From assembly GCA_037968615.1 (NCBI GenBank), contig JBBKVX010000017.1, forward strand, positions 9,266 to 73,265: 64,000 nt of DNA, in the 5' to 3' direction. Below the pieces are notes generated by a model. The model saw only the letters and a program-made list of their open reading frames with translations. It was not told the origin of the DNA and did not search any database. The number at the start of each line of letters is the position of its first letter. Within the stretch, counting starts at the first letter, position 1. The position numbers and the translations under genes were made by a program. Below are positions 6,384 through 61,405 of this stretch, piece by piece. The stretch comes from Rickettsiales bacterium. GTDB lineage: Bacteria > Pseudomonadota > Alphaproteobacteria > Rickettsiales > UBA3002.

Positions 6384-6830
6384 CTAGCTCTGGCGTTTTT
6401 CGCGGAAAAATGCGCTAAGCAGCGCACCGCATTCGGCTTCCATCACGCCGCCGATGGTTTCGGGAGCGTGGTGGCAGGTGGGGTGCGTGAACACGCGGGC
6501 GCCATGTTCGACGCCGCCGCCTTTGGGGTCGTGCGCGCCGTAGATGATCTTTTTGATTTTCGCCAACGAGGCCGCCTGTGCGCACATGGCGCAGGGTTCG
6601 AGCGTGACGTAGAGCGTGCAATCGGCGAGGTATTTGCTACCGCGTGTTTCGCAGGCGGCGCGGATGGCCAGCAGCTCGGCATGCGCTGTGGCGTCGCGGT
6701 TGGTCTCGACGAGGTTATGCGCTTGCGACAGCAGCGTGCCGTCGGCCGCCACGATGGCGGCGGCGATGGGCACTTCACCGCTGGCGGCAGCGGTGCGGGC
6801 GAGAGTGAGCAGATGCGGCATAGTTGTCAT
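6384..6830 (-). CDS. tadA: tRNA adenosine(34) deaminase
   Basis: GEVPI, HAELLAI, TLEPCAMC and FFREKR motifs; start likely 6830 or 6821. Confidence 0.9.
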   Translation of the reverse strand: MTTMPHLLTLARTAAASGEVPIAAAIVAADGTLLSQAHNLVETNRDATAHAELLAIRAACETRGSKYLADCTLYVTLEPCAMCAQAASLAKIKKIIYGAHDPKGGGVEHGARVFTHPTCHHAPETIGGVMEAECGALLSAFFREKRQS

Positions 6831-6841
6831 GCAAAGTTCAT
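6824..6841 (+). promoter_or_regulatory. Direct-repeat box TTGTCAT-N4-AGTTCAT (OmpR/PhoB-family-like)
   Basis: Two half-sites in 11-bp register, 22 bp upstream of TATGGT, ahead of orphan 6901. Confidence 0.5.
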
Positions 6842-6900
6842 ACATGGTGGGGTTAGAAAACGGTATGGTTTTGTGATGCGTTTTCACATGAGGACTGACC

Positions 6901-7086
6901 ATGACCAACGACAAGCAGCCGCGTTTTGACCTGGAAGCACAGGTAAGGAAAATATGGCCTCAACGTAGCCCTGAGGAATTAGCGGCACGCACCGCAGAAA
7001 ATGACGCGCGGTTCAAAGACCATGTGGAGCGGGTTATCAAAAGTATCCGTGAGCGCGCGAATACCAAAGGACCGGGTGGCCGCTAG
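6901..7086 (+). CDS. Small hypothetical protein (61 aa), basic C-terminus
   Basis: GAGGA RBS; fills the tadA-sspB gap; ends HVERVIKSIRERANTKGPGGR. Confidence 0.6.
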   Translation: MTNDKQPRFDLEAQVRKIWPQRSPEELAARTAENDARFKDHVERVIKSIRERANTKGPGGR

Positions 7087-7619
7087 CGCTTGCGGAAGGC
7101 CTCGAGCGAGATGACCTTCTCGTCGTTGGCGGCTTTGGTTTCTTCGGAGGGAGCATCTTCCTCGAAGGCGGCCATCGGCGGTTTTTCGTTGGCCGTACGG
7201 CCGGTGGCGGGGCAAGCGACGGGCTCTTCGTTCTCGGAAGTGGTGACCGGGCGTTTGCCATGGAATTGCAGGCCGAATTTGATGCTGGGGTCGGCGAACG
7301 CGGTGAGCGCGTCCAGCGGCACGACGAGTTTCTCGGGCACGTTATTGAAGCTGAGCATCAGCGAGAAATGGTCGCGGGCGATTTTCAGATCCCAGAATTG
7401 GTGCTGCACCACTATGGTGATTTCCTCCGGGTAACGCGCTTTCAGCTGCGGGGAGATGGAAACGCCGGGATATTCCGTTTGGAACGAAATGAAGAAATGA
7501 TGCTCGCCCGGCAGACCGAATTTCTGCACATGGATCAGCGATTCGCGCACGACATTGCGCATCGCGGAATCGATCATTTTCGGATAATCTAGGGTTTCGT
7601 CTTGCATGATGCCCATCAT
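7083..7619 (-). CDS. sspB: ClpXP adaptor SspB (alphaproteobacterial type)
   Basis: GLPGEHHFFISF, YPEEITIVVQHQFWDL, FADPSIKFGLQF and C-terminal VISLEAFRKR ClpX-binding tail; lies downstream of ssrA. Confidence 0.93.
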   Translation of the reverse strand: MMGIMQDETLDYPKMIDSAMRNVVRESLIHVQKFGLPGEHHFFISFQTEYPGVSISPQLKARYPEEITIVVQHQFWDLKIARDHFSLMLSFNNVPEKLVVPLDALTAFADPSIKFGLQFHGKRPVTTSENEEPVACPATGRTANEKPPMAAFEEDAPSEETKAANDEKVISLEAFRKR

Positions 7620-7645
7620 TTAGCGGTTTCCCGCTTTTTTAGCTA

Positions 7646-7660
7646 TTAAAATCATTTTAA
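7646..7660. promoter_or_regulatory. CtrA-type box upstream of sspB
   Basis: TTAA-AATCATT-TTAA within the palindrome ATTAAAATCATTTTAAT. Confidence 0.5.
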
Positions 7661-8364: not shown

Positions 8365-8420
8365 TTGTCACAGTTCTTGGCCGCCATCGTCATCAAGCTG
8401 TCACATAACTTTGTTAGGGT
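8365..8420 (+). promoter_or_regulatory. Pho-box-like direct repeats and -10 element upstream of orphan 8441
   Basis: TTGTCAC (8365), TCGTCAT (8387) and CTGTCAC (8398) in 11-bp register; TAGGGT lies 10 bp after the last half-site. Confidence 0.6.
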
Positions 8421-8440
8421 GAAGGCTAGGAGATAACTTT

Positions 8441-10705
8441 ATGACATCAGGCACCAACAATCCCGAGAACGGCCAGCCGGCGACCGGTACCGTTACGCCC
8501 GAGAACAATCTCGCGCTTCGGTACAGCTACGACCAGCTTGACGCCTCACACCGTGTGATGGCCGACCGCGTGGCCGCCCTGATTGTTGCCTATCCTGATA
8601 TTACGCGCCTGAACGACCCGGCGAAACAGCGCCAGCTTATTTCCGAAGTTATGAATTCGCCCATCGGCCGTGGCGCCCGCGACCAAGCAGGCAACGCCGC
8701 TAATGCGGCCGGGGGCCTCGCCCACCAGATTCCCGTGTTGCGCGATGTGCTGGATGCGGCTGACGCAAGCAGACGGGCAGCTCAAGGTGTGGGCGATGCC
8801 GGACATGCGGGGGCCACGGGTGTGGGCACGGCTGTATTGCCGGTGACCATTACTGCGGAAGCGGCGGGCGAATTTTATAACCAGCTTAAGGTCATTGGCA
8901 ATAATCTTTCGGCAGAGCAAGCGCGGTCGCTTGGTGCGGCCTATGCAAGTGTTTTCCAGGCGCGCGCAGTAGAGCGCGAGTCTAAGGGGATCGGTGCCGC
9001 TGTTTCGAGCGTGGATAATTTCCTGGCCTACGGCGCCGCAAGCTTTGCCTGGATCTGGGATCTGGCGCGCCAAATCCCGATCGTTGGCCCGTTGCTACAG
9101 AAACTCGATGCGCGCCCGACCCATACGTTTGATGAGCACGTGCGCCGCGCTACCAATGATGCCGATGTTAAAGCGACGCGCGAAAATCTGACGGAAGCGC
9201 GCGAGATTGATGGCGTGGATACGCGCCACTGGGCTGAAGCGTTGACCCGAGGCGGCGCGCAGCAAAACCGTGCTGGCCAGGATGTTGACGTGGTTGCTCC
9301 GAGCAAAAACGACCCAGTGCCAACCGCGCCTGACGCGCCGATGGATGCTGCGGGCACCCCCCTTGTTGCTGCAGCCGACAATGGCGCGGTTTTGAAAGAT
9401 GCCGTAGATAAAGCAGGCGATAACGCAGGCACAACGCTTGCCGAGCATTTCCGTGGTATCGACACGCCGCAAGAATGGGCGATGGTGGCCGCAGGGCTGG
9501 CGGGTGCAGGTTTTGTCGGCGTTCGTATGGCCCCGACGGTGGGTCGCGCAGGTGTTGCGGTAGCGCATGGCGCGGTGCGCAGTGGCGTTTCCGTGGCGCG
9601 TACGGCCGTGGCCGGTGTGACAGGGTTGACCGCTGGGGTAGTGCAAGGTGCGTCCGATCTGATTCCGGGCGGAAAATCCGGCCAGTTCCGCGCGGCAGAA
9701 GATGCGCTGCGCGAAGCCGAGATGCGCCGCGATGTGCGCCAAACGCGTGTGGATGCACGCCAGGCGCGCGTGGATGAATTGCAGGCCAAGCCGCTTGCCG
9801 AGCGCACGCTTGCCGACCGCGCTGCAATGAAAGTAGACGAAGTCCGTTTGGGCGGCGCACAGAATTCGCTGCGTGCGGCGGAAGAAGGTGTTGGCCGCAC
9901 TACCGCTCGCGTGGCCGAGCGCGCCGAGAATGCCGCCAGCATCATTGATAATGGTGGTCGTGGTGCAGGCCGCGTACAGCTGGCGTCGCATCTTACAGAA
10001 AATGCCGGCCGCATCGAACGTATGGGCGATGCTGCGTCTTCTGCCATTTCGCGCTTTGCCAGCAGCCGCCTTGGTGTAGAAAGCGCCGAGATCGCTGTAC
10101 GCGCCACCCGATTTGGCCGCGTTGCACGCTTTGCTGGCCGTATGATCCCGGGTGTGGGGCTGGCGGCAACGGCTGCCGCTGTCTTCATTCGCCCTTCGGA
10201 TGCCCATGCGGAAGAATATGGTAGCGCCAACTACTGGCAGCGCCTCGACCGCGACCATCAGCAGGGAAAAATCAACGACGCAGAATACGCTTCCTACCGC
10301 GCCATGCAGTCCGGCTTCCTTGCGACTGGCCTCGGCGGGTTCATTACTGCTGGTGTCACCGAAGTGGCGCAGAACGGTGGCGAGCATTTGGATAGAGAGC
10401 GCATGAGCCGTTATATGCCTCCTTCGCTGGTCGAGACCGTGACCGAAATGGTGGACGAGCACAAAGCCGGTTCACGCCGGAACGATGGCGCCTTGGGCCG
10501 CGCGGATGCGGGCATTGCGCATGCTGCCGTGGAGGCAACGCAGGTGCCGCGTGCGGCACAAGCGCAGGCTTCGTCGGCGGCGCGCCCGCTGGTGCGTAGC
10601 CAAGTAGCGGCTGTAGGCCACTTGCCTGAGGCAGAAGAGAAGCAGGGCTTCCGCCTGCCGCAGATCAAGTTGCCGTTCAAAATCGAGATGCCCCGTTTCG
10701 GCTAG
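8441..10705 (+). CDS. Large Ala/Gly-rich hypothetical protein (754 aa) with hydrophobic segments and a coiled coil
   Basis: AGGAG RBS; longest ORF in the interval; Gly-rich hydrophobic stretches (WAMVAAGLAGAGFVGV, GFLATGLGGFITAGV); no recognisable catalytic motif. Confidence 0.75.
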   Translation: MTSGTNNPENGQPATGTVTPENNLALRYSYDQLDASHRVMADRVAALIVAYPDITRLNDPAKQRQLISEVMNSPIGRGARDQAGNAANAAGGLAHQIPVLRDVLDAADASRRAAQGVGDAGHAGATGVGTAVLPVTITAEAAGEFYNQLKVIGNNLSAEQARSLGAAYASVFQARAVERESKGIGAAVSSVDNFLAYGAASFAWIWDLARQIPIVGPLLQKLDARPTHTFDEHVRRATNDADVKATRENLTEAREIDGVDTRHWAEALTRGGAQQNRAGQDVDVVAPSKNDPVPTAPDAPMDAAGTPLVAAADNGAVLKDAVDKAGDNAGTTLAEHFRGIDTPQEWAMVAAGLAGAGFVGVRMAPTVGRAGVAVAHGAVRSGVSVARTAVAGVTGLTAGVVQGASDLIPGGKSGQFRAAEDALREAEMRRDVRQTRVDARQARVDELQAKPLAERTLADRAAMKVDEVRLGGAQNSLRAAEEGVGRTTARVAERAENAASIIDNGGRGAGRVQLASHLTENAGRIERMGDAASSAISRFASSRLGVESAEIAVRATRFGRVARFAGRMIPGVGLAATAAAVFIRPSDAHAEEYGSANYWQRLDRDHQQGKINDAEYASYRAMQSGFLATGLGGFITAGVTEVAQNGGEHLDRERMSRYMPPSLVETVTEMVDEHKAGSRRNDGALGRADAGIAHAAVEATQVPRAAQAQASSAARPLVRSQVAAVGHLPEAEEKQGFRLPQIKLPFKIEMPRFG

Positions 10706-16728: not shown

Positions 16729-16746
16729 ATGTCATGAAAGCTTCAT
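16729..16746 (+). promoter_or_regulatory. Direct-repeat box ATGTCAT-N4-GCTTCAT
   Basis: Nearly identical to the box at 6824; upstream of orphan 16794. Confidence 0.55.
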
Positions 16747-16793
16747 ACAGTTATTGTTTTGCCGATGTATGAGAGAGGCTTAGGGAGAGTAGC

Positions 16794-17156
16794 ATGCAAG
16801 ATGAGAATACATCGTTCTGGCCAGAGCAGGTGCCGGTATCGAGCCCAGAGCTCGTAAATGGTCGGGGATCCATTTTGCGTATGGAGCCTCAGCCCGCGTC
16901 ACCGAAAGCAGCGCATGCGCACGAGTTGAATATCATTTACAAAGCCTCCAGCGCCGATCCGGCCTCGTTGGCAAAAGACGCGACGGAGGCGGCGATTGCG
17001 CTGCTCAAGCAGCATGGGCTAGAAGCGGAGCCAACGGTTTCGTATACCCGGAATACGCCACGACTGAAGGTGACGACCGAAATCGGCAGCTACCAATTCC
17101 GTCAAAAAATGCGCGACGTGAACCACGCGTTGGGCGACCCGGCCATTTGCTTTTAA
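16794..17156 (+). CDS. Hypothetical protein (120 aa)
   Basis: GGGAGAG RBS; fills the degP-serB gap; stop overlaps the serB stop (TTAA). Confidence 0.6.
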   Translation: MQDENTSFWPEQVPVSSPELVNGRGSILRMEPQPASPKAAHAHELNIIYKASSADPASLAKDATEAAIALLKQHGLEAEPTVSYTRNTPRLKVTTEIGSYQFRQKMRDVNHALGDPAICF

Positions 17157-18019: not shown

Positions 18020-18913
18020 AAGAATATCGCGGTGTTGATGGGGCCGACCGGCTCGGGTAAATCGGCGTTGGCGCTAGCAGTAGCGGCATCGCGGCCCGCT
18101 GTCATCATCAATGCCGATGCGATGCAGATGTCGGGCGCACTGCGCGTACTCAGCGCGCGGCCCAGCGTGGAGGAAGAAGCGCAGGCGGAACACGCACTGT
18201 ACGGCGTGCTGCGCGCCCAGGAGCCGAGCAGCGTGGCGCGCTGGCTGGCGCTGGTGGAGCCGGTGATTCGCCGCGCGTGGGACGAGGGAAAACTGCCGCT
18301 GCTGGTGGGTGGCACGGGCATGTATGTGAAAGCGCTGAAAGAAGGTCTGGCGAACATTCCGCCAATTCCGGAAGAGTTGCGCACGCGACTGCGCGCGATG
18401 GACGCGGCGTCGGTGCGCGCGATGCTGGAGCAGCGCGACCCAGCCATGGCGGCGCAGTTGAAACCGGGTGACAGCCAGCGTAATCTCCGTGCGCTGGAGG
18501 TGCTGGAAGCCACCGGCCAGAGCCTAGCAGCATGGCAAGCGCAGGACACGCCGCCGCCGCTGCCGGAAGCCGTGTTCCACGAGTTCTACATCGCGGTGGA
18601 GAAGCCAGTGCTGTATCCGCGCCTCGATGCGCGGTTCGAGGCAATGCTGGAACAGGGCGCGCTGGAGGAAGTGCGGGCACTGGCGGCGCTTGGGTTATCG
18701 CCCGACAACCCCATCACCCGCGCCCATGGCGTGCCGGAACTGGCCGCCTACCTGCGCGGTGATATGACGCGCGAAGCGGCGGTCGCCCAAGCCCAGCAGA
18801 ACACCCGCAACTACGCCAAGCGCCAGCAAACCTGGCTGCGCAACCAACTGGGCGGGGCGATGGCGCTCACCGGGCAGAGGGCAGAAGCTGGCTATTTCAC
18901 GAAATTGTCATGA
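18011..18913 (+). CDS. miaA: tRNA dimethylallyltransferase
   Basis: GPTGSGKS, INADAMQ, VGGTGMY and RNYAKRQQTW motifs; ATG at 18011. Confidence 0.93.
   Translation: MGHKNIAVLMGPTGSGKSALALAVAASRPAVIINADAMQMSGALRVLSARPSVEEEAQAEHALYGVLRAQEPSSVARWLALVEPVIRRAWDEGKLPLLVGGTGMYVKALKEGLANIPPIPEELRTRLRAMDAASVRAMLEQRDPAMAAQLKPGDSQRNLRALEVLEATGQSLAAWQAQDTPPPLPEAVFHEFYIAVEKPVLYPRLDARFEAMLEQGALEEVRALAALGLSPDNPITRAHGVPELAAYLRGDMTREAAVAQAQQNTRNYAKRQQTWLRNQLGGAMALTGQRAEAGYFTKLS
18894..18911 (+). promoter_or_regulatory. Direct-repeat box ATTTCAC-N4-TTGTCAT
   Basis: 11-bp register, 22 bp upstream of TAGGGT, ahead of orphan 18946. Confidence 0.5.
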
Positions 18914-18945
18914 ATGCTGGCGCGTGGGTTTGCTAGGGTCGTGCC

Positions 18946-36462: not shown

Positions 36463-36533
36463 GAGGGCGGACCAATCCTTTCCTTTATCGTGTTATTTTA
36501 CCGCAGCTGCGCGCGGGTTACACGTGGGGATTG

Positions 36534-36551
36534 GTGAAGCTTTTGTGACGA
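36534..36551 (-). promoter_or_regulatory. Direct-repeat box TCGTCAC-N4-GCTTCAC
   Basis: Same architecture as the boxes at 6824 and 16729; upstream of orphan 36462. Confidence 0.55.
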
Positions 36552-48287: not shown

Positions 48288-48290
48288 GGA

Positions 48291-50523: not shown

Positions 50524-51039
50524 ATGACCAAACCGTTACAACGCCGTATCACCCTGATTCGTCACGCCAAAGCCGAGGATGACGGCCAGACGGCGGATCA
50601 TGCGCGGCGCCTCAATCCGCGCGGGCTGGCGGATGCGGCCATCCTGGGGCAGGAGCTGAAAGCGGCGGGCGGACTGCCGGAAATGTGGCTCTGTTCCACC
50701 GCCACCCGCACCCGTGAAACACTGGCGGCGCTTGATACTGGCCTGCCGGTGATTCTTACGGACAAGGCCTACCTCGCAAGCGCGGGCGAGTTGCTCAGCG
50801 TATTGCAATCGGCGGACGATGCGCTGACGCATATTGGCCTCATTGCGCATAATCCCGGCTTGCACCAACTGGCGGCGACGCTGGCGGGCAGCTATGCGAA
50901 CCGCGACGACGAAGACAAATTGATGCTGAAATTCCCGACCTCGGCCTGCGCCGTGCTGTCGGCAGAGCTGGCGCATTGGGTGGATCTGACGCCACAAGCC
51001 ATGCGGCTGCTGTCCTTCGACTTCAAACAGAACGCTTAG
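50524..51039 (+). CDS. sixA: SixA-family phosphohistidine phosphatase
   Basis: LIRHAKA, RTRET, HNPG and KFPT motifs. Confidence 0.85.
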   Translation: MTKPLQRRITLIRHAKAEDDGQTADHARRLNPRGLADAAILGQELKAAGGLPEMWLCSTATRTRETLAALDTGLPVILTDKAYLASAGELLSVLQSADDALTHIGLIAHNPGLHQLAATLAGSYANRDDEDKLMLKFPTSACAVLSAELAHWVDLTPQAMRLLSFDFKQNA

Positions 51040-51040
51040 T

Positions 51041-52927
51041 TTAGGTGGTCGCGGGCGGCGCGGCGGGTGGTGCTTCCGCAGGCGGTGCGGGCGGCGCTGC
51101 AGGTGCATCCGCAGGCGGGGCCGGAGGCGGCGGGGCGGCGGCGACGGCTTTTTTCTTCTTACGCGGGTCGTAGGGTTCCTGCACCGGAAGTTTGATGGGC
51201 GGCAGCAGGCGTTTTTTGAAATAGTTGTCTTTGAAGTAGAAAATCTTTTTGCATTTGATCGGCGCAAACGACTCCACGAGAATGATCTGCTCGTCGCGCG
51301 GTAGTTGGATGACTTCCTGCGGCAGCAGCAGGGCGCGCTGTACTTCGCTGACATGCATGGTGCGCGAGGCGGGGTTGAAATCGACGAATTTCGGCCGGTT
51401 ATGCGAGCTTTGCTCGACAGTTTTGTTGCCCACCAACTGCGAGATCATGTTCGCGGTTTCCATGTTGTTCGCCGAGAAGGTGACGCGGTAGTAGCTGTTG
51501 GAGAGGAAGCTGATCATGCCGGCTTCTTCGTAGATGCCTTTGAGCTGCTGGGTATCCTGTACGATGAGGAACAGCTTCACGCGGTATCCACGGAAATAGG
51601 CAATGCCGATCTGGAATTGCGGCATTTCACCGAGCGACGGGAACTCATCCATCATGAACATCACGCCGTGCGGCTCGTCGGATTTCGGCATGGCGCGGGT
51701 GAGGAAGTCGGTCGCCTGCTGGTAGAACACCTTCAGCAGGGGTTCCAGGCGTTGTAAGTTGTCCGGTGTCACGCCGCAGTAAATCGTCTGTTTTTTCTTT
51801 TTCAGCGTCTGCATGTCAAAATCGGACGAGGCGGTGGTGGTGTCGATCAATGGGTTGGCCCAAAGCTCCAAGCCGGAGTTCAGCGTCGAGACCACGCCGG
51901 AGCGTTCCTTGTCGGCTTTTTGCAGGAACGCGGCGATGTTCATGTACGATACGGGGTGGATCTTGCCGCCGATGGTATCGAGCACCACGGCGAGGTTGTA
52001 GACCACATCGTCGGAGCGCATGGTGCGCACCACTTCGCCAAAGCTGGTCACTTTTTCCGGCACGGCGCAGAGATAGAGAATGACGCCGAGCATGAGCGAG
52101 CGCGCCTCGTTCTGCCAGAATTCCTGCTCGGGCAGGACGAGGTTGCAGATTTTCTGCACGTCATCCACCATCTGGCCGGGCTTCTCGGAAATCCAGTCGA
52201 GCGGGTTGTAGCAGTGCGAAATGCCGTTCGGGTCGGCGGGATTCCAGACGTAGCAGGGTTGCTTCAATTTCTGGCTGCGGTAGCCGGAAGTGAGCTCGTA
52301 GTTCTCCATTTTAATATCGTGGCAGATGACGGAGTTTTCCCAGAACAGCAGGTTCGGGATCACGAAGCCCACACCCTTACCGGAGCCGGTTGGTGCGAAC
52401 AGCAGCACGTGTTGGAAATCATCGACCACCAAGTAGTTCGCGGCCCCCGTGCGGCCCATGAGGAAGCCTTTTTTGGCGCGCAGCTTGGCACGGCGAATGT
52501 CGGCTTCGTTCGACCATTTGGCGCTGCCATGCACGGTCTCTTTTTTGCGGTAGGGGCGGAAATCCATCAGCGGTGCGCGCATCAGGAACAGGGTGAACAG
52601 CCCCATGAAGAATCCGCCGATGATCGGGCCATAGAATTTCGCGTCGAACGCGGCGTTGAAATAATATTGGCGGTATTGCGGGTAGGATTTGTAATAGCTG
52701 GCCTGATCGTGGATGGCTTTGTAGCCCTTCAAAATGCCCAGTGGGTTGCTGCCCGACATGACGTAGGTGAGCACCGAGGCGGGTTGCTGTTGCTGCATTT
52801 GGCTGAGATAGCGGTGGCCGAGGGTGAAGCCGGTAAGTGTGCCCGCGTAAATGGGTACCCCGATCACCAGTGAGATGAGCACGGTGAGGAACAGTTTGTT
52901 GAATATACCTTTGAGATATTCGGGCAT
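51041..52927 (-). CDS. virD4: Type IV coupling protein VirD4
   Basis: Two N-terminal TMs, HGSAKW, Walker A APTGSGKG, Walker B MMDEF; Pro-rich tail. Confidence 0.95.
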   Translation of the reverse strand: MPEYLKGIFNKLFLTVLISLVIGVPIYAGTLTGFTLGHRYLSQMQQQQPASVLTYVMSGSNPLGILKGYKAIHDQASYYKSYPQYRQYYFNAAFDAKFYGPIIGGFFMGLFTLFLMRAPLMDFRPYRKKETVHGSAKWSNEADIRRAKLRAKKGFLMGRTGAANYLVVDDFQHVLLFAPTGSGKGVGFVIPNLLFWENSVICHDIKMENYELTSGYRSQKLKQPCYVWNPADPNGISHCYNPLDWISEKPGQMVDDVQKICNLVLPEQEFWQNEARSLMLGVILYLCAVPEKVTSFGEVVRTMRSDDVVYNLAVVLDTIGGKIHPVSYMNIAAFLQKADKERSGVVSTLNSGLELWANPLIDTTTASSDFDMQTLKKKKQTIYCGVTPDNLQRLEPLLKVFYQQATDFLTRAMPKSDEPHGVMFMMDEFPSLGEMPQFQIGIAYFRGYRVKLFLIVQDTQQLKGIYEEAGMISFLSNSYYRVTFSANNMETANMISQLVGNKTVEQSSHNRPKFVDFNPASRTMHVSEVQRALLLPQEVIQLPRDEQIILVESFAPIKCKKIFYFKDNYFKKRLLPPIKLPVQEPYDPRKKKKAVAAAPPPPAPPADAPAAPPAPPAEAPPAAPPATT

Positions 52928-52943
52928 GGCGGGATATTAGCGC

Positions 52944-52971
52944 GACTCGTGACTCGTGACTAGCGACTCGT
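52944..52971. repeat. Heptamer tandem repeat (GACTCGT)x4, one unit imperfect
   Basis: GACTCGT GACTCGT GACTAGC GACTCGT in the virB11-virD4 gap. Confidence 0.7.
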
Positions 52972-53016
52972 GAAGAAAAACCACGCAAGGCGTGCGACGC
53001 GCATCACGCGTTACTT

Positions 53017-53994
53017 TTATGCATGCGGCTTGAAGTAGATCTCCGAGACGAAGCGGCGGCCCTTATCGCCGCGTTTCAGTTGGATGACCACCTGAATCAC
53101 ACTCTCGACATATTCCTTGATCTGCTCGCGGGTGATGCCGAGATCGGCCTGCATGATCATCAGGATGAGTTGCTCGATGGCCAGAGCGGGCGAATCGGCG
53201 TGGAGCGTGGCAATGGAGCCGGGATGGCCGGTGTTCACGGCGCGCAGGTAGCTGAAGGCCTCGGCGCCGCGCAACTCGCCGACTATGATGCGGTCGGGGC
53301 GCATGCGCAGACAGGCCTCGATGAGGTCTTGGGTGGTGACCTGAGCGCGGCCCTGACCGCCTTTGCTGGCCAGAAGATGCACGCGGTTCGGCTGGTCGAT
53401 TTGTACTTCGCGCACGTCTTCCACGGTGATGAGGCGCTCTTTATCGGGGATTTCTTTCAGCACGGCATTGAGGAAGGTGGTTTTGCCAGTGGAGGTGCCG
53501 CCGGAGACAATGATGTTCTTTTTCGCTTTCACGGCGGTGGCGATGAAGCCTTTGACGTCGCCTTTCGCGTAGAGCTCTTTCAGCACATCGTCGATGGGGT
53601 CGTGATGGCCCATGCCGGTGATGGTCTGCTCGAAGGCGCCGAGTGCTTCGTATTTGTCGAGGTCCATGTTCAGCGCGGTTTGTTTGCGGATGGCCATGAC
53701 CACGCCCGCATCGCAGGCGGGCGGAATGATGAGCTGGATGCGGTAGCCGCCCGGAAGGTTGGCGGAAAGTAGGGGTTTTTCTTCGGAAATCGCCTGCGAG
53801 GTGGATTGCGCGATGAGGTTGGCCAGGGCACGCATATGTTCGAGCGTCATTTCCGGCAGCAGCTCGTGGCGCATCTCGCCGAATTTTTCCACCCATGCTT
53901 CGCCCGGCTTGTTGATGGAAATTTCCTGAATGCCTTCCTCATCAAGCAAGCGCTTAAGCGGGGCGAGGTAGGTGTCGAGTGCGGTAAGGCTCAT
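53017..53994 (-). CDS. virB11: P-type T4SS ATPase VirB11
   Basis: EISINKPGE, GGTSTGKTT, LRMRPDRIIVGELRG and NTGHPG motifs. Confidence 0.96.
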   Translation of the reverse strand: MSLTALDTYLAPLKRLLDEEGIQEISINKPGEAWVEKFGEMRHELLPEMTLEHMRALANLIAQSTSQAISEEKPLLSANLPGGYRIQLIIPPACDAGVVMAIRKQTALNMDLDKYEALGAFEQTITGMGHHDPIDDVLKELYAKGDVKGFIATAVKAKKNIIVSGGTSTGKTTFLNAVLKEIPDKERLITVEDVREVQIDQPNRVHLLASKGGQGRAQVTTQDLIEACLRMRPDRIIVGELRGAEAFSYLRAVNTGHPGSIATLHADSPALAIEQLILMIMQADLGITREQIKEYVESVIQVVIQLKRGDKGRRFVSEIYFKPHA

Positions 53995-53995
53995 A

Positions 53996-55204
53996 CTAAT
54001 TCACAATCCGCGTGCCGCCGACGCCGTTGGGGAAGACGAGGTCGCGGTTCACGAACACGTTCACCGGAGTGCCTTGGTCGACCAAGATGGTGGGGCGCAC
54101 GTTGATGAAGCGCTGGAGGAAACTGTCGGTGGTGCCGCCGAGGCGGTTCAGGGCGTTGACGGTGGCGGTGGTGGCGCCGTCGCCCGATTGGGTGGTGCCG
54201 AAGGTGGATTGGCTGGTGGCGGTGTCGCCGCCGCCGGTGATGGTGTCGGAGCCCATGGCGAGGCCGATGGACACCACGCTGGCCATGACCGCGCGTGAGA
54301 AGATGGCTTGGAATTTGGTGTCGACCTGTCCGCCGATGCCGGCTTGGCCAATTTGGTCGATGAGCGGCGAATTGAGCATCACGTCCACGCCATCGGGGCG
54401 GATGACGCGCGTCCAGAGCACATAGACGCGGCTTTGGCCACCGAGGATGTCGGTGTTGTAGGTGCCGATCAGGCGCGAGCCTTTGGGAATAAGCGGTTCG
54501 CTGCCCGATTCGCCGTACGTATCGCGCGAGACAATGGCACGGATGGGGGCGGGAAGTTCGGTGTTCAGCGCGGATTCCATAGTGGCCTGAATGATGCGGC
54601 CCTGTGCGATGGTGCGACGCAGGTCGCCGATATGGGTGGCTTCGACGCGTGCGGCCTTGGTGTTGGCGCGGGCGATGTTGGCCTCGAATACGCTGTTGGG
54701 ATCGGAGCTTGCGGATTCGCCGGAATCGCTGCCGCCGAACATACCGCCGAGGCCACCACCGCTTGCGTTATCCTGCACCAGCATGTTCGAGCGCATGCGC
54801 GCCTGACGCTCTTTCTGCGCGGCGCCGTCATCCTCGGGTTTGATGAGGGTAACGCGCGTGGGTTCGGGAATGGTGATGGGGGTGAAAGCCGGCGGCGGCG
54901 CGACGTCGGTATTGGAGGGCGGCGTTGGAAGCGGCGGCGGAATGATGGGGGTGCTGGAGACACTGCGTTCGGGGCGTTTTTCAACCTCGTCGCCGTCGCC
55001 GGAGGAGAAGATGTTATACAGCAGGAACAGCAGCACCACGCCCACAATGCCCATGACCAGCATGGTGCGTCCGGGTTTGGCGGCCACCGAAGGTGCGCCT
55101 TGCGAAAGTTCCTGATCGCCTGAATCGCCGTTGCCGAAGGGGTCGTTGTCCATGGGCGGGAACGGATCCATCGGCGGTGGTGGTGGCGGTGGAGGCGTAC
55201 TCAT
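53996..55204 (-). CDS. virB10: T4SS core protein VirB10
   Basis: TM, Pro-rich linker, IPKGSRLIG, VRPTILVDQG and FVNRDLVF motifs. Confidence 0.93.
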   Translation of the reverse strand: MSTPPPPPPPPMDPFPPMDNDPFGNGDSGDQELSQGAPSVAAKPGRTMLVMGIVGVVLLFLLYNIFSSGDGDEVEKRPERSVSSTPIIPPPLPTPPSNTDVAPPPAFTPITIPEPTRVTLIKPEDDGAAQKERQARMRSNMLVQDNASGGGLGGMFGGSDSGESASSDPNSVFEANIARANTKAARVEATHIGDLRRTIAQGRIIQATMESALNTELPAPIRAIVSRDTYGESGSEPLIPKGSRLIGTYNTDILGGQSRVYVLWTRVIRPDGVDVMLNSPLIDQIGQAGIGGQVDTKFQAIFSRAVMASVVSIGLAMGSDTITGGGDTATSQSTFGTTQSGDGATTATVNALNRLGGTTDSFLQRFINVRPTILVDQGTPVNVFVNRDLVFPNGVGGTRIVN

Positions 55205-56035
55205 CTAGGCCCCATTCGATTCGTTGTAGACGATCACCTGACCGCCCGGTTGGTTGAGGCTGAAGCGTGGCGCCACGATATCGACGGCCACGATGTTGCC
55301 GGCGACGCTGCGGGTGGGCACGTCGAGCTGTTCGCCCTTGGAGGTGATGACGGCAATGCGCGGCATGGTGGCGCTGCGGTATTTGAAGTAGGTGGTGCGG
55401 CCGTCGTCGTAAATTTTGACGGGCGCGGCGGTGCTGGGGCCGCTGTAGGTGTATTTGTAATTCATCGGTCCGCTGCTGGCCATCGGAGCGGGCGCGGGAA
55501 TGGAGCCGGTGGTGATGGGCGCGCGCTTCGGCATCGGTGTGGGCGGCGGTGTGTAGGCGGGCGCGGGTGGTGTGTAGCTGACGGGCGTGGCAGCCATCGG
55601 CGTGGGGGCGGGCATGGGCGCGCTCATGGCCGTGCTTTCGCCGGGATAGTAGAAGCGCACGACGTAGGTAAGCTCCTCGCTGCCGAACACCGCATCGGCG
55701 GCGCTGGAGCGGAGGTCGAACTGGTAAGCGCGAAGGTTGGTGACGATGGTCATGTTGGTGTGGGCGTTTTCTTCCATGGCGCGCACGAACAGGCGACGGC
55801 CCGCCGGAATGATCTGCCAGGCCACGCGGTCGCCCACCGACACGGTGTCGATGGTCTCGCGTTCGCCGAACTCGACGTTGCTCTGGTAGCCGTAATGGGT
55901 GGTGATGGTGAACACTTCGTTCGGGTTGTAGACGAAGGTCTTGATGCGGCTGTCGGTCACGATGGGGGCGGCCTGCGCCACGGAGCTGCCGAGGACGAGG
56001 AAGGCTAGTAAGGTGCTGAAAACAAGGCTCCGCAT
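55205..56035 (-). CDS. virB9: T4SS core protein VirB9
   Basis: Signal peptide; DSRIKTFVYNPNEV, TNMTIVTN and YDDGRTTYFKY motifs; Pro-rich linker. Confidence 0.92.
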   Translation of the reverse strand: MRSLVFSTLLAFLVLGSSVAQAAPIVTDSRIKTFVYNPNEVFTITTHYGYQSNVEFGERETIDTVSVGDRVAWQIIPAGRRLFVRAMEENAHTNMTIVTNLRAYQFDLRSSAADAVFGSEELTYVVRFYYPGESTAMSAPMPAPTPMAATPVSYTPPAPAYTPPPTPMPKRAPITTGSIPAPAPMASSGPMNYKYTYSGPSTAAPVKIYDDGRTTYFKYRSATMPRIAVITSKGEQLDVPTRSVAGNIVAVDIVAPRFSLNQPGGQVIVYNESNGA

Positions 56036-56751
56036 CAGTTGATCTCGCGCTGGATCTGGTAGTTCGTGACAGTATAGCCGAGCGGATTGAGAAGTTGTTC
56101 TTCTTCGTTGAGGTTCAGACTCGCATACTCGAAGTTGATTGTCACTACCCATTGCTGCACCACGTCGCCCGCGCCGGGAAGCATATCCACGGTGGTGATG
56201 CGCGCCTGCATAATTTTGGTGGGGGTTTTTTCCTCGGCGCGGCCGTTGGGCAGCGGCGGGTTCTGGATGTAGCTGATCGAGCGAATGCGGATGTCGCGTT
56301 GGCCTTGCGCGCCCAACGTGGCGGCAAGGCTTTGCGGGTTGCTGGTTTCGACGCTGCGGCGGTAGCCGTTATAGACGCCGGGCACGCTCATCAGGCGCAC
56401 GATTTCGTAGTTGTGGCGGAGGATGCTGAAATTGTAGCCCTCGCGCACGCGGATATACATGGAGGTGAAGTAGCGATCAACCGCCGTGTTCGCCGCGTAA
56501 GCATTGCGCGAGATGGGCTCTACTTTTTGGGTGAGGCCGGTTTTTTCATCGATCTGAAGCAGGTAGGGCTCGACGGATTTCAGTGGTGCAAGGCGCGCGA
56601 CGGCAATAACGGCGACCAACGCAGCGCCCAGCGCACATAACGCGACAAGAGCGAAGATGTTTCGTTGCACGAGCACATGCTGGTACTTGTCCTGGTACCA
56701 ATGCTTCGAACTCTCTGAGACGTTTTTTTGCGACCGCTTAAACACACACAT
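56035..56751 (-). CDS. virB8: T4SS protein VirB8
   Basis: Single TM, PLKSVEPY, YIRVREGY and NPLG motifs. Confidence 0.92.
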   Translation of the reverse strand: MCVFKRSQKNVSESSKHWYQDKYQHVLVQRNIFALVALCALGAALVAVIAVARLAPLKSVEPYLLQIDEKTGLTQKVEPISRNAYAANTAVDRYFTSMYIRVREGYNFSILRHNYEIVRLMSVPGVYNGYRRSVETSNPQSLAATLGAQGQRDIRIRSISYIQNPPLPNGRAEEKTPTKIMQARITTVDMLPGAGDVVQQWVVTINFEYASLNLNEEEQLLNPLGYTVTNYQIQREIN

Positions 56752-56841
56752 ACCCTAGTGGGTTTTTCCCTAGCGTGGGACTATATCTAGTGTTGCGCGC
56801 GCGTCCATAAAAAACGGCGCGGAGTTCACAACTGCATGGTG

Positions 56842-58479
56842 CTAGTGGCCTGAATCGCGATGCGGATTCAGGATGAAGTTGCTGAAGCTGTCGACCAGCC
56901 CGGGGTCGTTGGTCAGGCCGTCTTCGTTGCGCGGGCCGCCTTGAATCATCCACTTGATGCCTTCTGTAATGCCTGCCGCGGCCGGTACGAAGGTGGTCTT
57001 GAGGACGCCTTCGTTGGTGAAGCCACGAGTGACGCCTTTCTCGAATGTTTCGAGCATCTCGCCGCCCGGCATGTCCATGGAGGTTTTGGCACCGATGGCG
57101 GTGCCGCCGCCGAGTTGCGGTGCATAGGTGGCGCCCATGCCGCCCGCCAACACTTGCGCCAATGCGCCGACATAGTTCAGTAGGAACTCGACCACATAGG
57201 CCAGCACCAGCAGCGAGAGCAATCCGGTGAGGGCGAATTTCATCAGCGCGGTCTGCACTTTTTTCTCGTCGGTATCGCCGCCGGTGGCTTCGTTGGGCGG
57301 GGCCATGGCGCCCATGGCGCGAATGGGTTTGGGCGGGTTGTCCTTACAGGCAAGCCGACCCTGCTGAATAGTGTCGCCGTACTGGTCGTCGGGGATGGGG
57401 TTGCCTTCAGCATCGAGCACGTTGAATTCGCAGATCGTGCAATATTGCCACGGCGCGCGCATGGTGGTGGAGGTGAAGTTTTCTTGCACCGGCATAATGA
57501 TGTTGGTGAGGCTGCCCGAGATATGGGTGACGTTGATCGACAGGATGAAGCCGAGGAACGCGAACAAGATCACCATTTGCAGGCTAAAAGTGACAAGGTA
57601 GCCGAGCCATTTATCGAAGAACGGGCGCGTTTGTTTGAACAGGTAGAAGCTGAGGAAGAACGGCGACAAAGTGAGCAGGAACACAATGCCGATGATGGAA
57701 TAGAGGTAGCCGAAAATGGCGCGCAGGAACGTGACGGCGACACGGAAAATGATCATGACGCCGATGAAGAACACGGGCGGGAAAGCAACCGCCATGATGG
57801 CCAGCACGGCGAATACGGCGTTCTTGCACGGGTTCTGTCCGGCCTCCCATTTCGCGCCGACGTAATCGGTGGCGAAATGCATGGTCTGGCCAAGGAAGCT
57901 GTCGAGGTAGCGGTACACATCGACGCCGGTGACGGCGCCTGTTCTGGCCGCGAGATCGTCGGGGAACATGGTGCTGATGCCGATGGCGGTGCCCTCGCGC
58001 AGGCCGGTGATGAGCAGCGCGTAGCCGGTGCCGATCATGGCGTCGGCCTGGGTGGCGAACACGGTGATGACCGCCATTTTGAGTAGGAACATTTGGAAGT
58101 CACGCGCGGTGGCGGGAATAACGCCGATGGTGAAGCCGACGCCGAAGATGACGGTGGCCAGCGTCAACATGCCCATCACGGCGGGCACGAGGTCGCTGAT
58201 GATGCCGCAATACATCTCGCCGAGCAGGTTACTGGCCAGCCGCTCCATATTGCAAACGAGGAAGGTGAACACGTTGTTCATGTTCATGGTGCTGGGGCAG
58301 CCCATGGAGGTATCGTAGAGCGTGCCGACGGCGTGCCCGCCGATGCAGCCGAACCCGGCGCCCGGCTTCGCCGCGAAGGCCGGATCGATCATCATGAAAT
58401 AGGCGAGCGTGATAAGGAACAGGCCGAACAGGATGCGGCCGTACTCGACGCGATGCATGCTCTGTGTGTAGCCCATCAT
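56842..58479 (-). CDS. virB6: VirB6/TrbL-family inner-membrane protein
   Basis: Multi-TM with LSPFFLSFYLFKQTRPFFDKW VirB6 motif; Cys-containing soluble extensions. Confidence 0.85.
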   Translation of the reverse strand: MMGYTQSMHRVEYGRILFGLFLITLAYFMMIDPAFAAKPGAGFGCIGGHAVGTLYDTSMGCPSTMNMNNVFTFLVCNMERLASNLLGEMYCGIISDLVPAVMGMLTLATVIFGVGFTIGVIPATARDFQMFLLKMAVITVFATQADAMIGTGYALLITGLREGTAIGISTMFPDDLAARTGAVTGVDVYRYLDSFLGQTMHFATDYVGAKWEAGQNPCKNAVFAVLAIMAVAFPPVFFIGVMIIFRVAVTFLRAIFGYLYSIIGIVFLLTLSPFFLSFYLFKQTRPFFDKWLGYLVTFSLQMVILFAFLGFILSINVTHISGSLTNIIMPVQENFTSTTMRAPWQYCTICEFNVLDAEGNPIPDDQYGDTIQQGRLACKDNPPKPIRAMGAMAPPNEATGGDTDEKKVQTALMKFALTGLLSLLVLAYVVEFLLNYVGALAQVLAGGMGATYAPQLGGGTAIGAKTSMDMPGGEMLETFEKGVTRGFTNEGVLKTTFVPAAAGITEGIKWMIQGGPRNEDGLTNDPGLVDSFSNFILNPHRDSGH

Positions 58480-60857
58480 GCGGGTGCCCCGAATCCCATC
58501 AAGTCGTTGAGCATTTCAGCGGCGGTTTTTTCTACCTGCGTCGGCGTGCGGCCGGACAGGGTGGTGAGGCCGCTGCCCAGTGTGCTGAGGTCGAGCTTGA
58601 GCATGGTCGATTCGTCGCCACGTTTCAGCAGCACATGGCGTTTGTGACGTTCCATATGGGCGACGGCGGCGATGTCGGATTCGCTGAGGGTGAAGCCCAT
58701 CGCGTAATCGCTGCCGGGGGCGTCGTCGGGCATCACGAAAATACTGGCGGCGCGTTGGGCGAGCAGATTGGTGTAGGGCAGCAGCGCATCGTTCTCGATG
58801 TGGCTGCTCATCAGCAGACAGGCGGCGTTCTGGGTGGCGAGGTGGTCCCACCAACCGGCGGCGCGCGGGCCGAACAGCGGCGTGTTGAGCTGGGTGAGGC
58901 CGTCGCTCATGACGAGGATGGTGGGTGTGCCGCTCAGCGCGCCGGTGATGCGGTGCAGCAGGTAGCTGACGAGCGGGATGCGCACGGCCACGTCGGCCAT
59001 GAACGGTGCAAGGTTCCAGGCGCTGAGAGCGCCGACGGAGAAATCGTCGCTCGGCATGTCGAACAGTTCGCCGTGCTGCCCCCCGGCGCACCATTGCGCG
59101 AAATGGGCGGCGAGGGCGGCGTCGGCTTCGCGTATGCTCGGCAGCAGCGCGCTGAGGCGGCGCTGCTCGCGCGGCAATTGCATCACCTCGTTCACCAGCG
59201 ACTGGAAGAAACCGAGCGACGCCTGATTGAGTTGCTTGGCCTCGGGGTCGATGAGGGTGGAGAGCCAGAAGGCGATGAATTCGCGGTTGGCCGGGGTCTC
59301 GGCCATTTGCAGCGGATTAAGGCGCAGCTGCGGCGTACCCGGCTTGAGCATGGTGCCGCCCATGGCCTGCACGAACAGCTCGGCGCGGCCAGTGGCGTCG
59401 AGGTACCAGATGTTCGGTTTCAGTTTGCGCGATTGCGCCAACAGGAAATGCGCCATGGTGGTGGCGCCGGATTTTTCGTGGCCGAGGATCATGGTGTGCG
59501 CCGAGGTGCCGCGATGCATGTTGAAGAAATACGGCGTGTCCTGCACGGTGGTGAGCAGGCTGACCGGCGCGCCCCACGGCGTGCCTGCAGCGTTGCCCAT
59601 CGGCTGCGTCTGCAGGTTGGCGAACCCGGCAAGGTGGTTGCTGTCGATGGAATGTTTGCGCGCGATGAACGGGAAATTGCCCGGCAATTGCGCCCAGTAA
59701 CATTCCTCGAACCGCAGGTCTTCGCGCACCGCAAGGATGCCCAGCTTCGACAAAGATTTGCCGACCATACGCACGCTGGTTTCCAACTGCTTGGTGGAGG
59801 GGGCGATGAGGAACAGGGTGGTCTGCTGCTCGCCGAACGCTTTGTCGGTATCCATTCCCGGGCGCATCAACCGGTCGATCTCCATCCATTCAGCCAGCTC
59901 CTTGTCGCCGCTGATGGCGAGGTAGCGCGCCTGTTTCTCGTAGCTGGCGCGGGCTTTGCTGCCGCCGATGAAATCGAAACACTGGCTGACGATGAGTTCG
60001 CAGGGGATGTCGAGGAACTTGTCGATGCCTTTGAGCGTGGACTCTTTGTATTCCTTCAGCGTGAGGATGGCGGCGAAGCGGCGCTTGCCTTCGGCGGTGC
60101 GCACTTCCATCGCGTCGTGGGCAAAAGTGATCTCGCCCGAGGTGAGCACCTGCGACAGGTCGCGGCGCGGCACTTCCATGGGGCGCTCTTCGAGGTTGAT
60201 GAGTTTTTCCAAGAACTCGAGCTGCTCGCTGTAGAACACGCTTTCGCGCTCGACCACGGAAAGGCGCCGCGCGCCGTAGGGGCGCAGGGCGTCGAGCATG
60301 CGGGCCATCGTGCCGGAGAGCTGCCCCAGCGCTGCGTCGAGGAAGGCGGTGCGCGCTTTGCGGTCGCGGCGGGGGGAGAGGCTTTGCAGCAGGCTGTCTA
60401 TGTTGCCCAGCCCCGCTTGTTGGCCGGCCTTCACCACGGTGATGTAGAGTTCGTTGACGAAGCTGGCGCTCGACGGATGTTGCGCGCGCCACGAAGCGTC
60501 GAGGTTGCCGGAGAACTGGTCGGGGAAATGGGCGTGGGGCAGCAGTTGCTGCCGGCGGCGCAGCGTGTGCAGCCAGATGGCGTAGCTGGTGTCGGGAATG
60601 CAATCCTGAATGGCGGCGCGAATGGCGGCGCGCAGGTCGCCCGAATGCTGGCCCGCTTCGAAGCCAAGACCGGTGATTTTGATGATCTGCAGCAGTTCGC
60701 CGTTCTTGGTGGCGATGGTGTCGCGGTCGTAAAGACAGGCGTACGGCACGAAATCGGATTCGATCACGTCGTCCGAGATGTCGCGGAACGATTCGAGGTC
60801 GCGCTCGCTGGCGCTTTTAAGCGCCGCGGTGGTGTTCTGTTTACGCGCTGGTTTCAT
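58476..60857 (-). CDS. virB4: VirB4-family protein with degenerate Walker motifs (RvhB4-II-like)
   Basis: TIATKNGELLQIIKI, YWAQLPGNF, PYFFNMH and LNPLQM VirB4 motifs; Walker A reads GHEKSGAT, Walker B VMSDG. Confidence 0.88.
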   Translation of the reverse strand: MKPARKQNTTAALKSASERDLESFRDISDDVIESDFVPYACLYDRDTIATKNGELLQIIKITGLGFEAGQHSGDLRAAIRAAIQDCIPDTSYAIWLHTLRRRQQLLPHAHFPDQFSGNLDASWRAQHPSSASFVNELYITVVKAGQQAGLGNIDSLLQSLSPRRDRKARTAFLDAALGQLSGTMARMLDALRPYGARRLSVVERESVFYSEQLEFLEKLINLEERPMEVPRRDLSQVLTSGEITFAHDAMEVRTAEGKRRFAAILTLKEYKESTLKGIDKFLDIPCELIVSQCFDFIGGSKARASYEKQARYLAISGDKELAEWMEIDRLMRPGMDTDKAFGEQQTTLFLIAPSTKQLETSVRMVGKSLSKLGILAVREDLRFEECYWAQLPGNFPFIARKHSIDSNHLAGFANLQTQPMGNAAGTPWGAPVSLLTTVQDTPYFFNMHRGTSAHTMILGHEKSGATTMAHFLLAQSRKLKPNIWYLDATGRAELFVQAMGGTMLKPGTPQLRLNPLQMAETPANREFIAFWLSTLIDPEAKQLNQASLGFFQSLVNEVMQLPREQRRLSALLPSIREADAALAAHFAQWCAGGQHGELFDMPSDDFSVGALSAWNLAPFMADVAVRIPLVSYLLHRITGALSGTPTILVMSDGLTQLNTPLFGPRAAGWWDHLATQNAACLLMSSHIENDALLPYTNLLAQRAASIFVMPDDAPGSDYAMGFTLSESDIAAVAHMERHKRHVLLKRGDESTMLKLDLSTLGSGLTTLSGRTPTQVEKTAAEMLNDLMGFGAPA

Positions 60858-60893
60858 AGGTTAATGTAGCCGCGCTCGAGGTAAAATGACAGG

Positions 60894-60939
60894 AAAAAAA
60901 AGGCGCTATCCGCAGGCGAGGCCTTTTGGATAGCGCCTT
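60894..60939 (-). terminator. Intrinsic terminator after virB2
   Basis: 12-bp stem AAGGCGCTATCC/GGATAGCGCCTT followed by a T run on the minus strand. Confidence 0.75.
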
Positions 60940-60952
60940 CGTTTTTAGGCGA

Positions 60953-61288
60953 TTACATGCAGCCGTCGCCACCCGCACCCAGTTCGGATACGATGGCAGG
61001 TGCACCGAAGATGACCGCTACGCCGATACCGACGATGATGGCCATACCCCACGATACTTTACCCATCAGGGCGCCAATACCGATCACGATGATCGCCAGC
61101 GTGGCAATACCTTGACCTACGGGGCCCGTGAACCAGCCTGCAACGTTACAGAGCAGATTGCCGATGGTGTCGCCACCGTCGCCGCCGCCGAAAGCAAGAG
61201 CGTCCTGCGGTACGAGGAACATGGCGTAGGCAAGCATCATGCACCATGCGATGCTCTTCAGCTTGTCCGCGTTAATAGATACATTCAT
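60953..61288 (-). CDS. virB2: VirB2/TrbC pilin
   Basis: Long signal peptide ending ALA; LCNVAGWFTGPVGQGIATLAIIVIG and second TM IFGAPAIV; conserved Cys. Confidence 0.9.
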   Translation of the reverse strand: MNVSINADKLKSIAWCMMLAYAMFLVPQDALAFGGGDGGDTIGNLLCNVAGWFTGPVGQGIATLAIIVIGIGALMGKVSWGMAIIVGIGVAVIFGAPAIVSELGAGGDGCM

Positions 61289-61365
61289 TAGTCACTCCAT
61301 CACTGTTAAGGTAACCCTTGGTTTTCCCTAGGTTACGGCTATGCTTTTGGCCGTTGTTAACCTTT

Positions 61366-61405
61366 ATCACAGTTTTGTTACAGTTTTGTTACAACTTTGT
61401 GACGA
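61366..61405 (-). promoter_or_regulatory. Four-unit 11-bp direct-repeat array in the virB2 promoter
   Basis: Minus strand TCGTCAC-AAAG-TTGTAAC-AAAA-CTGTAAC-AAAA-CTGTGAT, 22 bp upstream of CATAGC. Confidence 0.7.

Follow-up and report, generated by a model that had tools for sequence, protein, structure and literature searches.

A Pho-box-type promoter element upstream of a VirB/VirD4 type IV secretion operon and about 140 scattered genes in an uncultured Rickettsiales-like bacterium

In a classical Pho-box promoter, the box substitutes for the -35 hexamer, and about 10 bp separate it from the -10 element downstream. Control of type IV secretion systems (T4SSs) by an OmpR-family regulator is known from Agrobacterium Ti plasmids, where VirG directly activates virB-type T4SS operons together with genes for translocated proteins, and the binding motif of PmrA, a TTAA-type tandem repeat, has been used for effector discovery in Legionella and Coxiella. 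In Escherichia coli, the Pho box is described in excerpts of two papers as consisting of CTGTCAT-type 7-bp direct repeats with an AT-rich 4-bp spacer and a TGTCA tract in each 11-bp unit (PMC4447250, PMC4415409). The effector genes activated by PmrAB in Legionella number about 40, and CpxRA has about 30 under its control together with several icm/dot genes, according to excerpts of a further paper (PMC6989116). Here we analyzed a stretch of 64,000 nucleotides (nt) of an uncultured Rickettsiales bacterium (the window, G000:C17:9266-73265), in which a box made of direct repeats in 11-bp register precedes both virB2, the pilin gene of a VirB/VirD4-type T4SS, and several scattered orphan genes. 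We propose that these boxes are Pho-box-type activator sites, most likely read by PhoB, which would control the virB2-virD4 operon and about 140 scattered genes; we assign this reading a probability of roughly 0.6. The motif, where it stands, how it is oriented, its targets and its conservation are shown directly; the binding protein, the activation, the inducing signal and the secretion of the products are inferred.

The genome is 1.88 Mb in size (about 60% G+C, 86 contigs, completeness rating 100%), and the records related to it are metagenome-assembled genomes labelled Alphaproteobacteria, 'Rickettsiales' or 'Azospirillum'. Sampled genomes of relatives are referred to below by labels such as G025 where they need to be told apart. 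Genes were called with our own crude caller based on codon usage, which gave 1854 genes covering 89.6% of the genome, 62 of them in the window, and every gene-based count rests on these calls. The six box loci listed in a preliminary description of the window were found at the same places with the same sequences, and they are the only intergenic sites in the window that score 13 or more with the weight matrix introduced below. Box 1 (6824..6841, plus strand, TTGTCAT-gcaa-AGTTCAT, score 18.6) precedes a plus-strand open reading frame (ORF) of 61 amino acids (aa) at 6901..7086. On its other side lies a minus-strand ORF (6384-6821) that is tadA-like by eye only; the box had been thought to overlap the start of this divergent gene and, with our own start call, abuts the start codon instead. 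Box 2 (8387..8404, plus strand, TCGTCAT-caag-CTGTCAC, score 23.4) precedes an orphan of 754 aa (8441..10705, plus strand), and a lone half-site TTGTCAC at 8365-8371 is 23 bp away from it and so out of register. Box 3 (16729..16746, plus strand, ATGTCAT-gaaa-GCTTCAT, score 21.6) is followed by an orphan ORF of 120 aa (16794..17156, plus strand), and box 4 (18894..18911, plus strand, ATTTCAC-gaaa-TTGTCAT, score 21.9) by an overlapping pair of orphan genes (18946..20936, plus strand, starts at 18946 and 19932) encoding 329 and 334 aa. On the minus strand, box 5 (36534..36551, TCGTCAC-aaaa-GCTTCAC, score 17.7) precedes an orphan of 441 aa (35137..36462). The proteins downstream of boxes 1 to 5 have no Pfam match; the 61-aa and 120-aa ORFs were missed by our gene caller and are putative genes. 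The sixth locus is the virB2 promoter.

The pattern is strongly tied to one spacing and to intergenic DNA. In a genome-wide spacing scan, the 199 kb of intergenic DNA contained KTCAY-N6-KTCAY 116 times and the two half-sites at any other spacing between 0 and 17 just 3-16 times; the 1.69 Mb of coding DNA contained the N6 form just 28 times. The stricter form GTCAY-N6-GTCAY was found at 38 intergenic sites, against 0-7 at other spacings, and over the whole genome the KTCAY-type pattern had 144 matches, against 15 when it was read backwards as a control. The 116 aligned sites share the consensus a.tKTCAY-nAAAc-yKTCAC-A, and their flanks contain no sequence information. A weight matrix built from these pattern-selected sites, and circular for those sites themselves, detected 143 intergenic and 15 coding sites at a score of at least 14, where 2.3 were expected from intergenic DNA simulated with a first-order Markov model. 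The spacing scan, the simulation and the backwards control put the motif far above chance level, and its earlier assignment to the tandem heptamers in 11-bp register that are typical of the OmpR/PhoB family was sustained.

The boxes stand at preferred distances from -10 elements. Genome-wide, 21 sites have a TAnnnT motif beginning 10 nt downstream of the box and 45 have one 21-22 nt downstream, with no other offset represented by more than 4 sites; in the 21-22 class, which makes up two thirds of all sites whose -10 element can be recognised, the box lies one helical turn further upstream. The consensus sequences of both spacing classes show the TGn of an extended -10 element and neither contains a TTGACA-like -35 hexamer, while in both classes one half-site is positioned at about -38 to -34. 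The two spacings go with different half-sites. Spacing 10 is found with GTCAY/GTCAY boxes, 38 in number, of which 21 have spacing 10 only and 5 have 21-22 only; spacing 21-22 is found with boxes containing TTCAY: such a half is present at least once in 78 boxes, of which 41 have this spacing only and 4 have spacing 10 only. Within the window, -10-like hexamers read directly from the sequence are TATGGT (6864..6869, plus strand), 22 nt after box 1, and TATGAG (16768..16773, plus strand), 21 nt after box 3. Box 4 is followed by an extended -10 element TGcTAGGGT (18931..18939, plus strand) with its hexamer 22 nt after the box, box 2 by TGtTAGGGT (8412..8420, plus strand) with its hexamer at the classical Pho-box spacing of 10 nt, and box 5 by TAAAAT (36495..36500, minus strand) 33 nt away. 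The distances given in the preliminary description, a half-site 21-22 bp before the -10 hexamer and 33 bp in one locus, are thus confirmed, and its half-site at 21-22 bp is the one positioned at about -38 to -34. Promoters orthologous to that of the gene starting at 36462 have either 33 or 22 nt between box and -10 element, so that helical phase is kept. In the promoters of the 441-aa gene with 33-nt spacing, a CGTGT element is conserved about 9-13 nt past the box (window 36501-36533, minus strand; loci L105-L118).

Boxes mostly face the genes: between co-directional neighbours, 68 sites share the orientation of the genes and 17 have the opposite one, and 59 sites lie between divergent genes and 7 between convergent genes. 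Start codons pile up after the box at 22 nt (11 genes) and at 33-36 nt (28 genes). Because they cluster at the predicted transcription start, leaderless mRNAs are predicted for about a quarter of the targets. The 18946 gene belongs to this group, since its ATG lies 6 nt beyond the extended -10 element. A TAnnnT motif at leaderless distance from the start codon is also present at 135 of 1632 non-target genes, and just about 45% of the genes in the genome carry a Shine-Dalgarno-like motif, so that many genes of this organism may be translated without a leader.

The virB2 promoter (minus strand) contains three half-sites in 11-bp register at 61377..61405, namely TCGTCAC (61405-61399), TTGTAAC (61394-61388) and CTGTAAC (61383-61377), followed by an extended -10 element TGaTAAAGG (61361..61369) whose hexamer lies 10 nt after the third half-site. 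It had been read as a four-unit array; the supposed fourth unit, TGTGATAAAG, is the -10 element and aligns with TGnTAnnnN in relatives. The box precedes virB2 (60953..61288; Pfam TrbC/VirB2), which is present in a single copy in the genome, and the genes that follow on the same strand are virB4 (58476-60857, identified through its relatives), virB6 (56842-58479), virB8 (56035-56676), virB9 (55205-56035), virB10 (53996-55153, the single TrbI match of the genome), virB11 (53017-53994) and virD4 (51041-52927), with virB6, virB8, virB9, virB11 and virD4 identified by Pfam. No further box was found inside the virB4-virD4 cluster (51041..60857). Among public metagenome-assembled genomes, 17 VirB4 loci include upstream DNA, and in 13 of them this DNA contains a box scoring at least 11, a conservation that reaches down to 36-44% VirB4 identity; two more VirB4 loci with scores of 9.3 and 10.8 have the same layout of box and extended -10 element.

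A second T4SS cluster with virB3, virB4 and three virB6 genes is located elsewhere in the genome (G000:C6:15378-22507, minus strand). A box before this cluster was looked for and not found (best score 4.0). As VirB2 and VirB10 are each encoded once, both in the window, the two clusters may be parts of one system that is split, a layout which we take to resemble the Rickettsiales arrangement. Genomic linkage between phoB and the T4SS was also considered, as phoB lies 10-21 kb from virB4 in several relatives, and was rejected: housekeeping genes stand between them, and the proximity was taken as synteny and not as an operon link. Directly downstream of virD4 and on the same strand are ppk (polyphosphate kinase) and ppx (exopolyphosphatase; together 46797-50471, minus strand), with a small histidine-phosphatase gene on the opposite strand in between (50524-51039); neither ppk nor ppx has a box upstream. 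On the other side, and divergent from virB2, a YjgF-family gene is followed by a TraX-family gene (61985-62680, plus strand). TraX proteins are pilin acetylases.

The target set was derived from 152 intergenic sites scoring at least 13, 112 of which have a called gene start within 150 nt downstream. It comprises 142 ORFs and is about 20 times larger than the set first noted. For Pfam analysis, 139 targets were scanned, leaving out two alternative-start duplicates and one ORF cut by a contig end. They matched 40 families, compared to 203 in 139 random non-target genes from the same loci, a contrast that counts families and not proteins. The matched targets include VirB2, an RTX protein, a phage capsid protein, BrkB, SCO1, two M48 peptidases, two EF-hand proteins, GDPD, inositol monophosphatase, DHH/DHHA1, NUDIX, MarR, SLT, M23 and CHAP. 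Ordinary enzymes such as GDPD, inositol monophosphatase, DHH, NUDIX and SCO1 are thus among the targets, and a few (GDPD, Inositol_P, DHH, NUDIX) are of phosphoesterase type. The earlier remark that the box was not noticed before housekeeping operons agrees with the spacing scan, the weight-matrix scan and the Pfam families of the targets. Compared to other genes, targets have a lower G+C content at third codon positions (0.68 vs 0.75, p = 4e-23) and encode fewer I, L and V and more N, Q, P and R residues. Using a crude heuristic, a signal-peptide-like start was found in 4 of 122 targets and in 358 of 1643 other proteins. Paralogy is limited to 12 of the 139 targets, in 5 small families; in the window, the 329-aa and 334-aa orphans are tandem paralogues of weak similarity (33% identity over 165 aa). 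In the ESM Atlas, the 441-aa and 754-aa orphans matched only unnamed clusters (scores 0.76-0.84).

Among the individual targets, the phage capsid-family protein was matched with E = 1e-80 and is possibly part of a gene-transfer-agent or prophage cluster. A protein of 1697 aa with a DEDDh exonuclease (G000:C9, about 17077, minus strand) has a box 49 nt upstream of its start, and the DHH/DHHA1 protein, which is RecJ-like, is likewise a box target.

The pattern is conserved in related genomes. It was enriched in all 18 sampled genomes of the genus, with 82-232 matches against 7-33 for the pattern read backwards, and in four genomes from other families of the order (G023, G025, G026 and G028; 111-177 against 11-41). 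Three genomes were weakly enriched (G019, G024, G027), and in G020, G021, G022, G029 and G030 no enrichment was found. All 18 genus genomes encode the 441-aa orphan (49-70% identity, except for two weaker or partial matches), and a box is located upstream of all 16 orthologues whose match reaches the N-terminus; the box is absent at three other loci of this orphan, one N-terminally cut, one from another family and one with a 30% match. The 754-aa orphan was found in 4 of 18 genus genomes (27-44% identity), and its orthologue in G010 retains the box. The 329-aa protein had a single weak match (24%, one relative), and the 120-aa ORF at 16794 had no match in any of 30 relatives. Apart from the 441-aa protein, the orphans turn over quickly.

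The preliminary description had suggested that effectors could be discovered by motif in this lineage. As far as the gene set is concerned, this holds, because the box is conserved in orthologous promoters and the set can be read by motif (about 140 targets in this genome, and 80-230 boxes in every one of the 18 genus genomes). As to effector function, the orphans are mostly lineage-specific and lack signal-peptide-like starts, and for these reasons the box-bearing orphans would be the best candidates for T4SS substrates; the scarcity of Pfam matches and the proposed co-regulation with the pilin operon are further indirect support. That most of the targets are such substrates is a tentative view, to which we give slightly less than even odds.

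Six proteins with an OmpR-type DNA-binding domain (Trans_reg_C) are encoded in the genome: a PhoB orthologue (C47 6469-7221; 334.7 bits with TIGR02154 PhoB, cut-off 296.2), a CopR/CusR-like regulator with its kinase (C2 20326-21057), a KdpE-like regulator (C11), CtrA (C18), an OmpR-like regulator with an EnvZ-like kinase (C65) and a stand-alone winged-helix protein (C7). The DNA-binding domain of PhoB has E. coli PhoB as its best PDB match (1GXP, 3T72), and the recognition-helix stretch RTVDVHIRRLRKAL is identical to that of E. coli PhoB, in a comparison that covered PhoB alone. PhoB identity runs parallel to enrichment of the box: it is 84-96% across the genus, whose 18 genomes are all enriched, 68-82% in the four families with enrichment and 59-63% in the three weakly enriched genomes, and in the five non-enriched genomes it is 47-55% or no PhoB was found. 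G025 (111 against 16 matches) contains just three OmpR-family regulators, which are PhoB, a CtrA-like and an OmpR-like protein. Genes for a PhoR-like protein, PstS, PstCA and PhoU are present in the genome. PhoB is quite probably the regulator, and the existence of a regulon of this kind read by a single regulator family is very likely.

In the mechanism we propose, the box would consist of two, sometimes three, 11-bp units that replace the -35 hexamer and are followed by an extended -10 element. An OmpR/PhoB-family response regulator would bind it as a head-to-tail dimer and recruit RNA polymerase. The partner of the half-site at -38/-34 would lie one helical turn downstream at spacing 10 and one turn upstream at spacing 21-22, with both arrangements at virB2. 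Sigma-70 promoters without a -35 hexamer would in this way be activated, switching on the operon from the pilin gene to virD4 and about 140 mostly lineage-specific genes, and the inducing signal would be phosphate limitation, perceived through PhoR/Pst.

Several observations weigh against control by PhoB of one such regulon of secreted proteins. A true Pho regulon normally includes the pst and pho genes. Here, no box was found at the Pho genes: the best same-strand score within 300 nt upstream was -1.3 for pstS, 2.8 for pstC, -2.1 for phoR, 3.5 for phoU, 2.9 for phoB and 2.1 for ppk, compared to at least 13 at the targets, and for pstS in five relatives with enrichment, scored over 800 nt of upstream DNA, the maximum was 0.8-7.5. 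It had been suggested beforehand that a box at pstS and phoU would point to PhoB and its absence to a dedicated regulator; the absence speaks against PhoB, yet by recognition helix and phyletic pattern PhoB alone fits. The phyletic correlation is itself confounded by relatedness, as related genomes are not independent samples. On the side of the targets, the remaining 40 of the 152 sites could be assigned only to the first downstream ORF of at least 40 aa, BLAST found no C-terminal domain shared among targets, and C-terminal charge differs weakly between targets and other proteins (K+R 3.5 vs 3.1, p = 0.01; net charge p = 0.11). The latter difference was too weak to be used as a signal. The half-site make-up differs between the spacing classes, which could mean that there are two regulators. 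There would then be two regulons with a similar box, a PhoB set (GTCAY-N6-GTCAY, 10 nt) and a TTCAY set (21-22 nt) read by a paralogous regulator. Half-site make-up indeed correlates with spacing and the class consensus sequences differ, but the half-site at about -38 to -34 is common to both classes, the virB2 array combines both layouts, orthologous promoters switch between G and T half-sites, and the mixed pattern is enriched even where regulators are few, as in G025. We consider two regulons improbable.

The same regulon could be read by another winged-helix regulator, for which the CopR/CusR-like protein on C2, the OmpR-like protein on C65, the KdpE-like protein on C11 or the protein on C7 would be available among the six Trans_reg_C proteins. 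Pho genes without a box would fit a dedicated regulator, the CopR-like pair adjoins boxes (C2 19979 and 20029, both minus strand) and two target genes, and orthologues of the C7 protein are present in 17 of 18 genus genomes. Three of these candidates fail when their phyletic distribution is compared to that of the box. For the CopR-like regulator, no orthologue with at least 54% identity was found in the enriched G025 or in 7 of the 18 genus genomes, which are likewise enriched (G001, G006, G007, G009, G013, G014 and G016), and one is present in the non-enriched G030. The OmpR-like regulator is at 41-53% identity in the non-enriched G020, G029 and G030, equal to or above the 44-49% in the enriched G023, G025, G026 and G028, and the C7 type was not found in the enriched G002, G023 and G026. 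For the KdpE-like protein, no match is present among the three regulators of G025. A regulator other than PhoB is therefore rather unlikely. The two minus-strand boxes near the CopR/CusR-like pair lie in the divergent region beside it (G000:C2:19979-20124); its kinase is short (336 aa) and the pair has a patchy distribution in the genus. It is very improbable that the repeat is a promoter element read directly by a sigma factor, a dispersed repeat or a chance feature. A fixed distance to the -10 element in more than 60 promoters would suit a sigma-factor element, but a direct repeat in 11-bp register that shifts one turn up or down or occurs in three copies is characteristic of winged-helix proteins bound in tandem and not of a -35 hexamer, and the -10 element is of the sigma-70 extended type. 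Since the flanks are uninformative, the box is not a dispersed repeat; with flanks not conserved and 12 of 139 targets paralogous, an artefact of mobile repeats or paralogues was ruled out, and chance is opposed by a 50-fold enrichment over simulation.

The sites provide a handle, obtained from sequence, on the likely secreted repertoire of an uncultured lineage with at least 18 species in the genus and related families, as about 100-200 candidates per genome can be read from promoters alone. They suggest that wholesale re-use of a core nutrient regulator for genes of host or prey interaction is possible, with loss of its classical targets. Being short and much alike (a box and an extended -10 element, often with the start codon at the transcription start), the promoters would be handy for synthetic reporters of an unculturable organism. 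A wider reading, which we regard as speculative, is that the PhoB/Pho-box module became uncoupled from phosphate transport and now serves as the master switch of a T4SS and of more than 100 fast-turning-over, species-specific secreted proteins per genome. This reading would apply clade-wide to uncultured Rickettsiales-like alphaproteobacteria, in which box and extended -10 would form a compact, portable and often leaderless promoter acquired by new genes. Judged by titles and the beginnings of abstracts, none of the papers listed in a search that did not include the name of the lineage describes a regulon combining PhoB, type IV secretion and effectors.

In comparison to described systems, the logic is a known one found in an uncultured lineage, and what is unusual is its size and the omission of phosphate-transport genes. 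The vir box of VirG, a dodecamer, is unrelated in sequence to the box described here, the best score with the VirG model (NF010430) is 131 bits against a cut-off of 344, obtained by the OmpR-like protein, and the regulon is chromosomal and far larger. With PmrA and CpxR of Legionella and Coxiella it shares a winged-helix response regulator over dozens of scattered effector genes, as far as described in excerpts of the literature (PMC6989116), here with candidates only. It differs from the PmrA systems in that NCBIfam PmrA is matched with 113-179 bits at best, where 330 are required, the box is of the TGTCA type, the T4SS is of the VirB/VirD4 type and not Icm/Dot, the host is an uncultured alphaproteobacterium and the target set is three to four times larger. 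With the Pho regulon it shares a PhoB orthologue with identical recognition helix and the lack of a -35 hexamer, and the consensus of the 116 sites agrees with the definition of the Pho box by two 7-mers, an AT-rich spacer and an 11-bp unit, as worded in excerpts of the two papers on E. coli (PMC4447250, PMC4415409). The 10-nt layout of the classical Pho box is present at 21 sites and at virB2, whereas 45 other sites have 21-22 nt. Unlike the Pho regulon, this one has about 150 sites in a 1.9-Mb genome, its targets are mostly orphans without Pfam match plus a T4SS operon, pstS, pstC, phoU, phoR and phoB are without a box, and many transcripts are predicted to be leaderless. In logic, the closest system is thus the control by PmrA and CpxR in Legionella; as regards the site sequence and the protein, the Pho regulon is closest.

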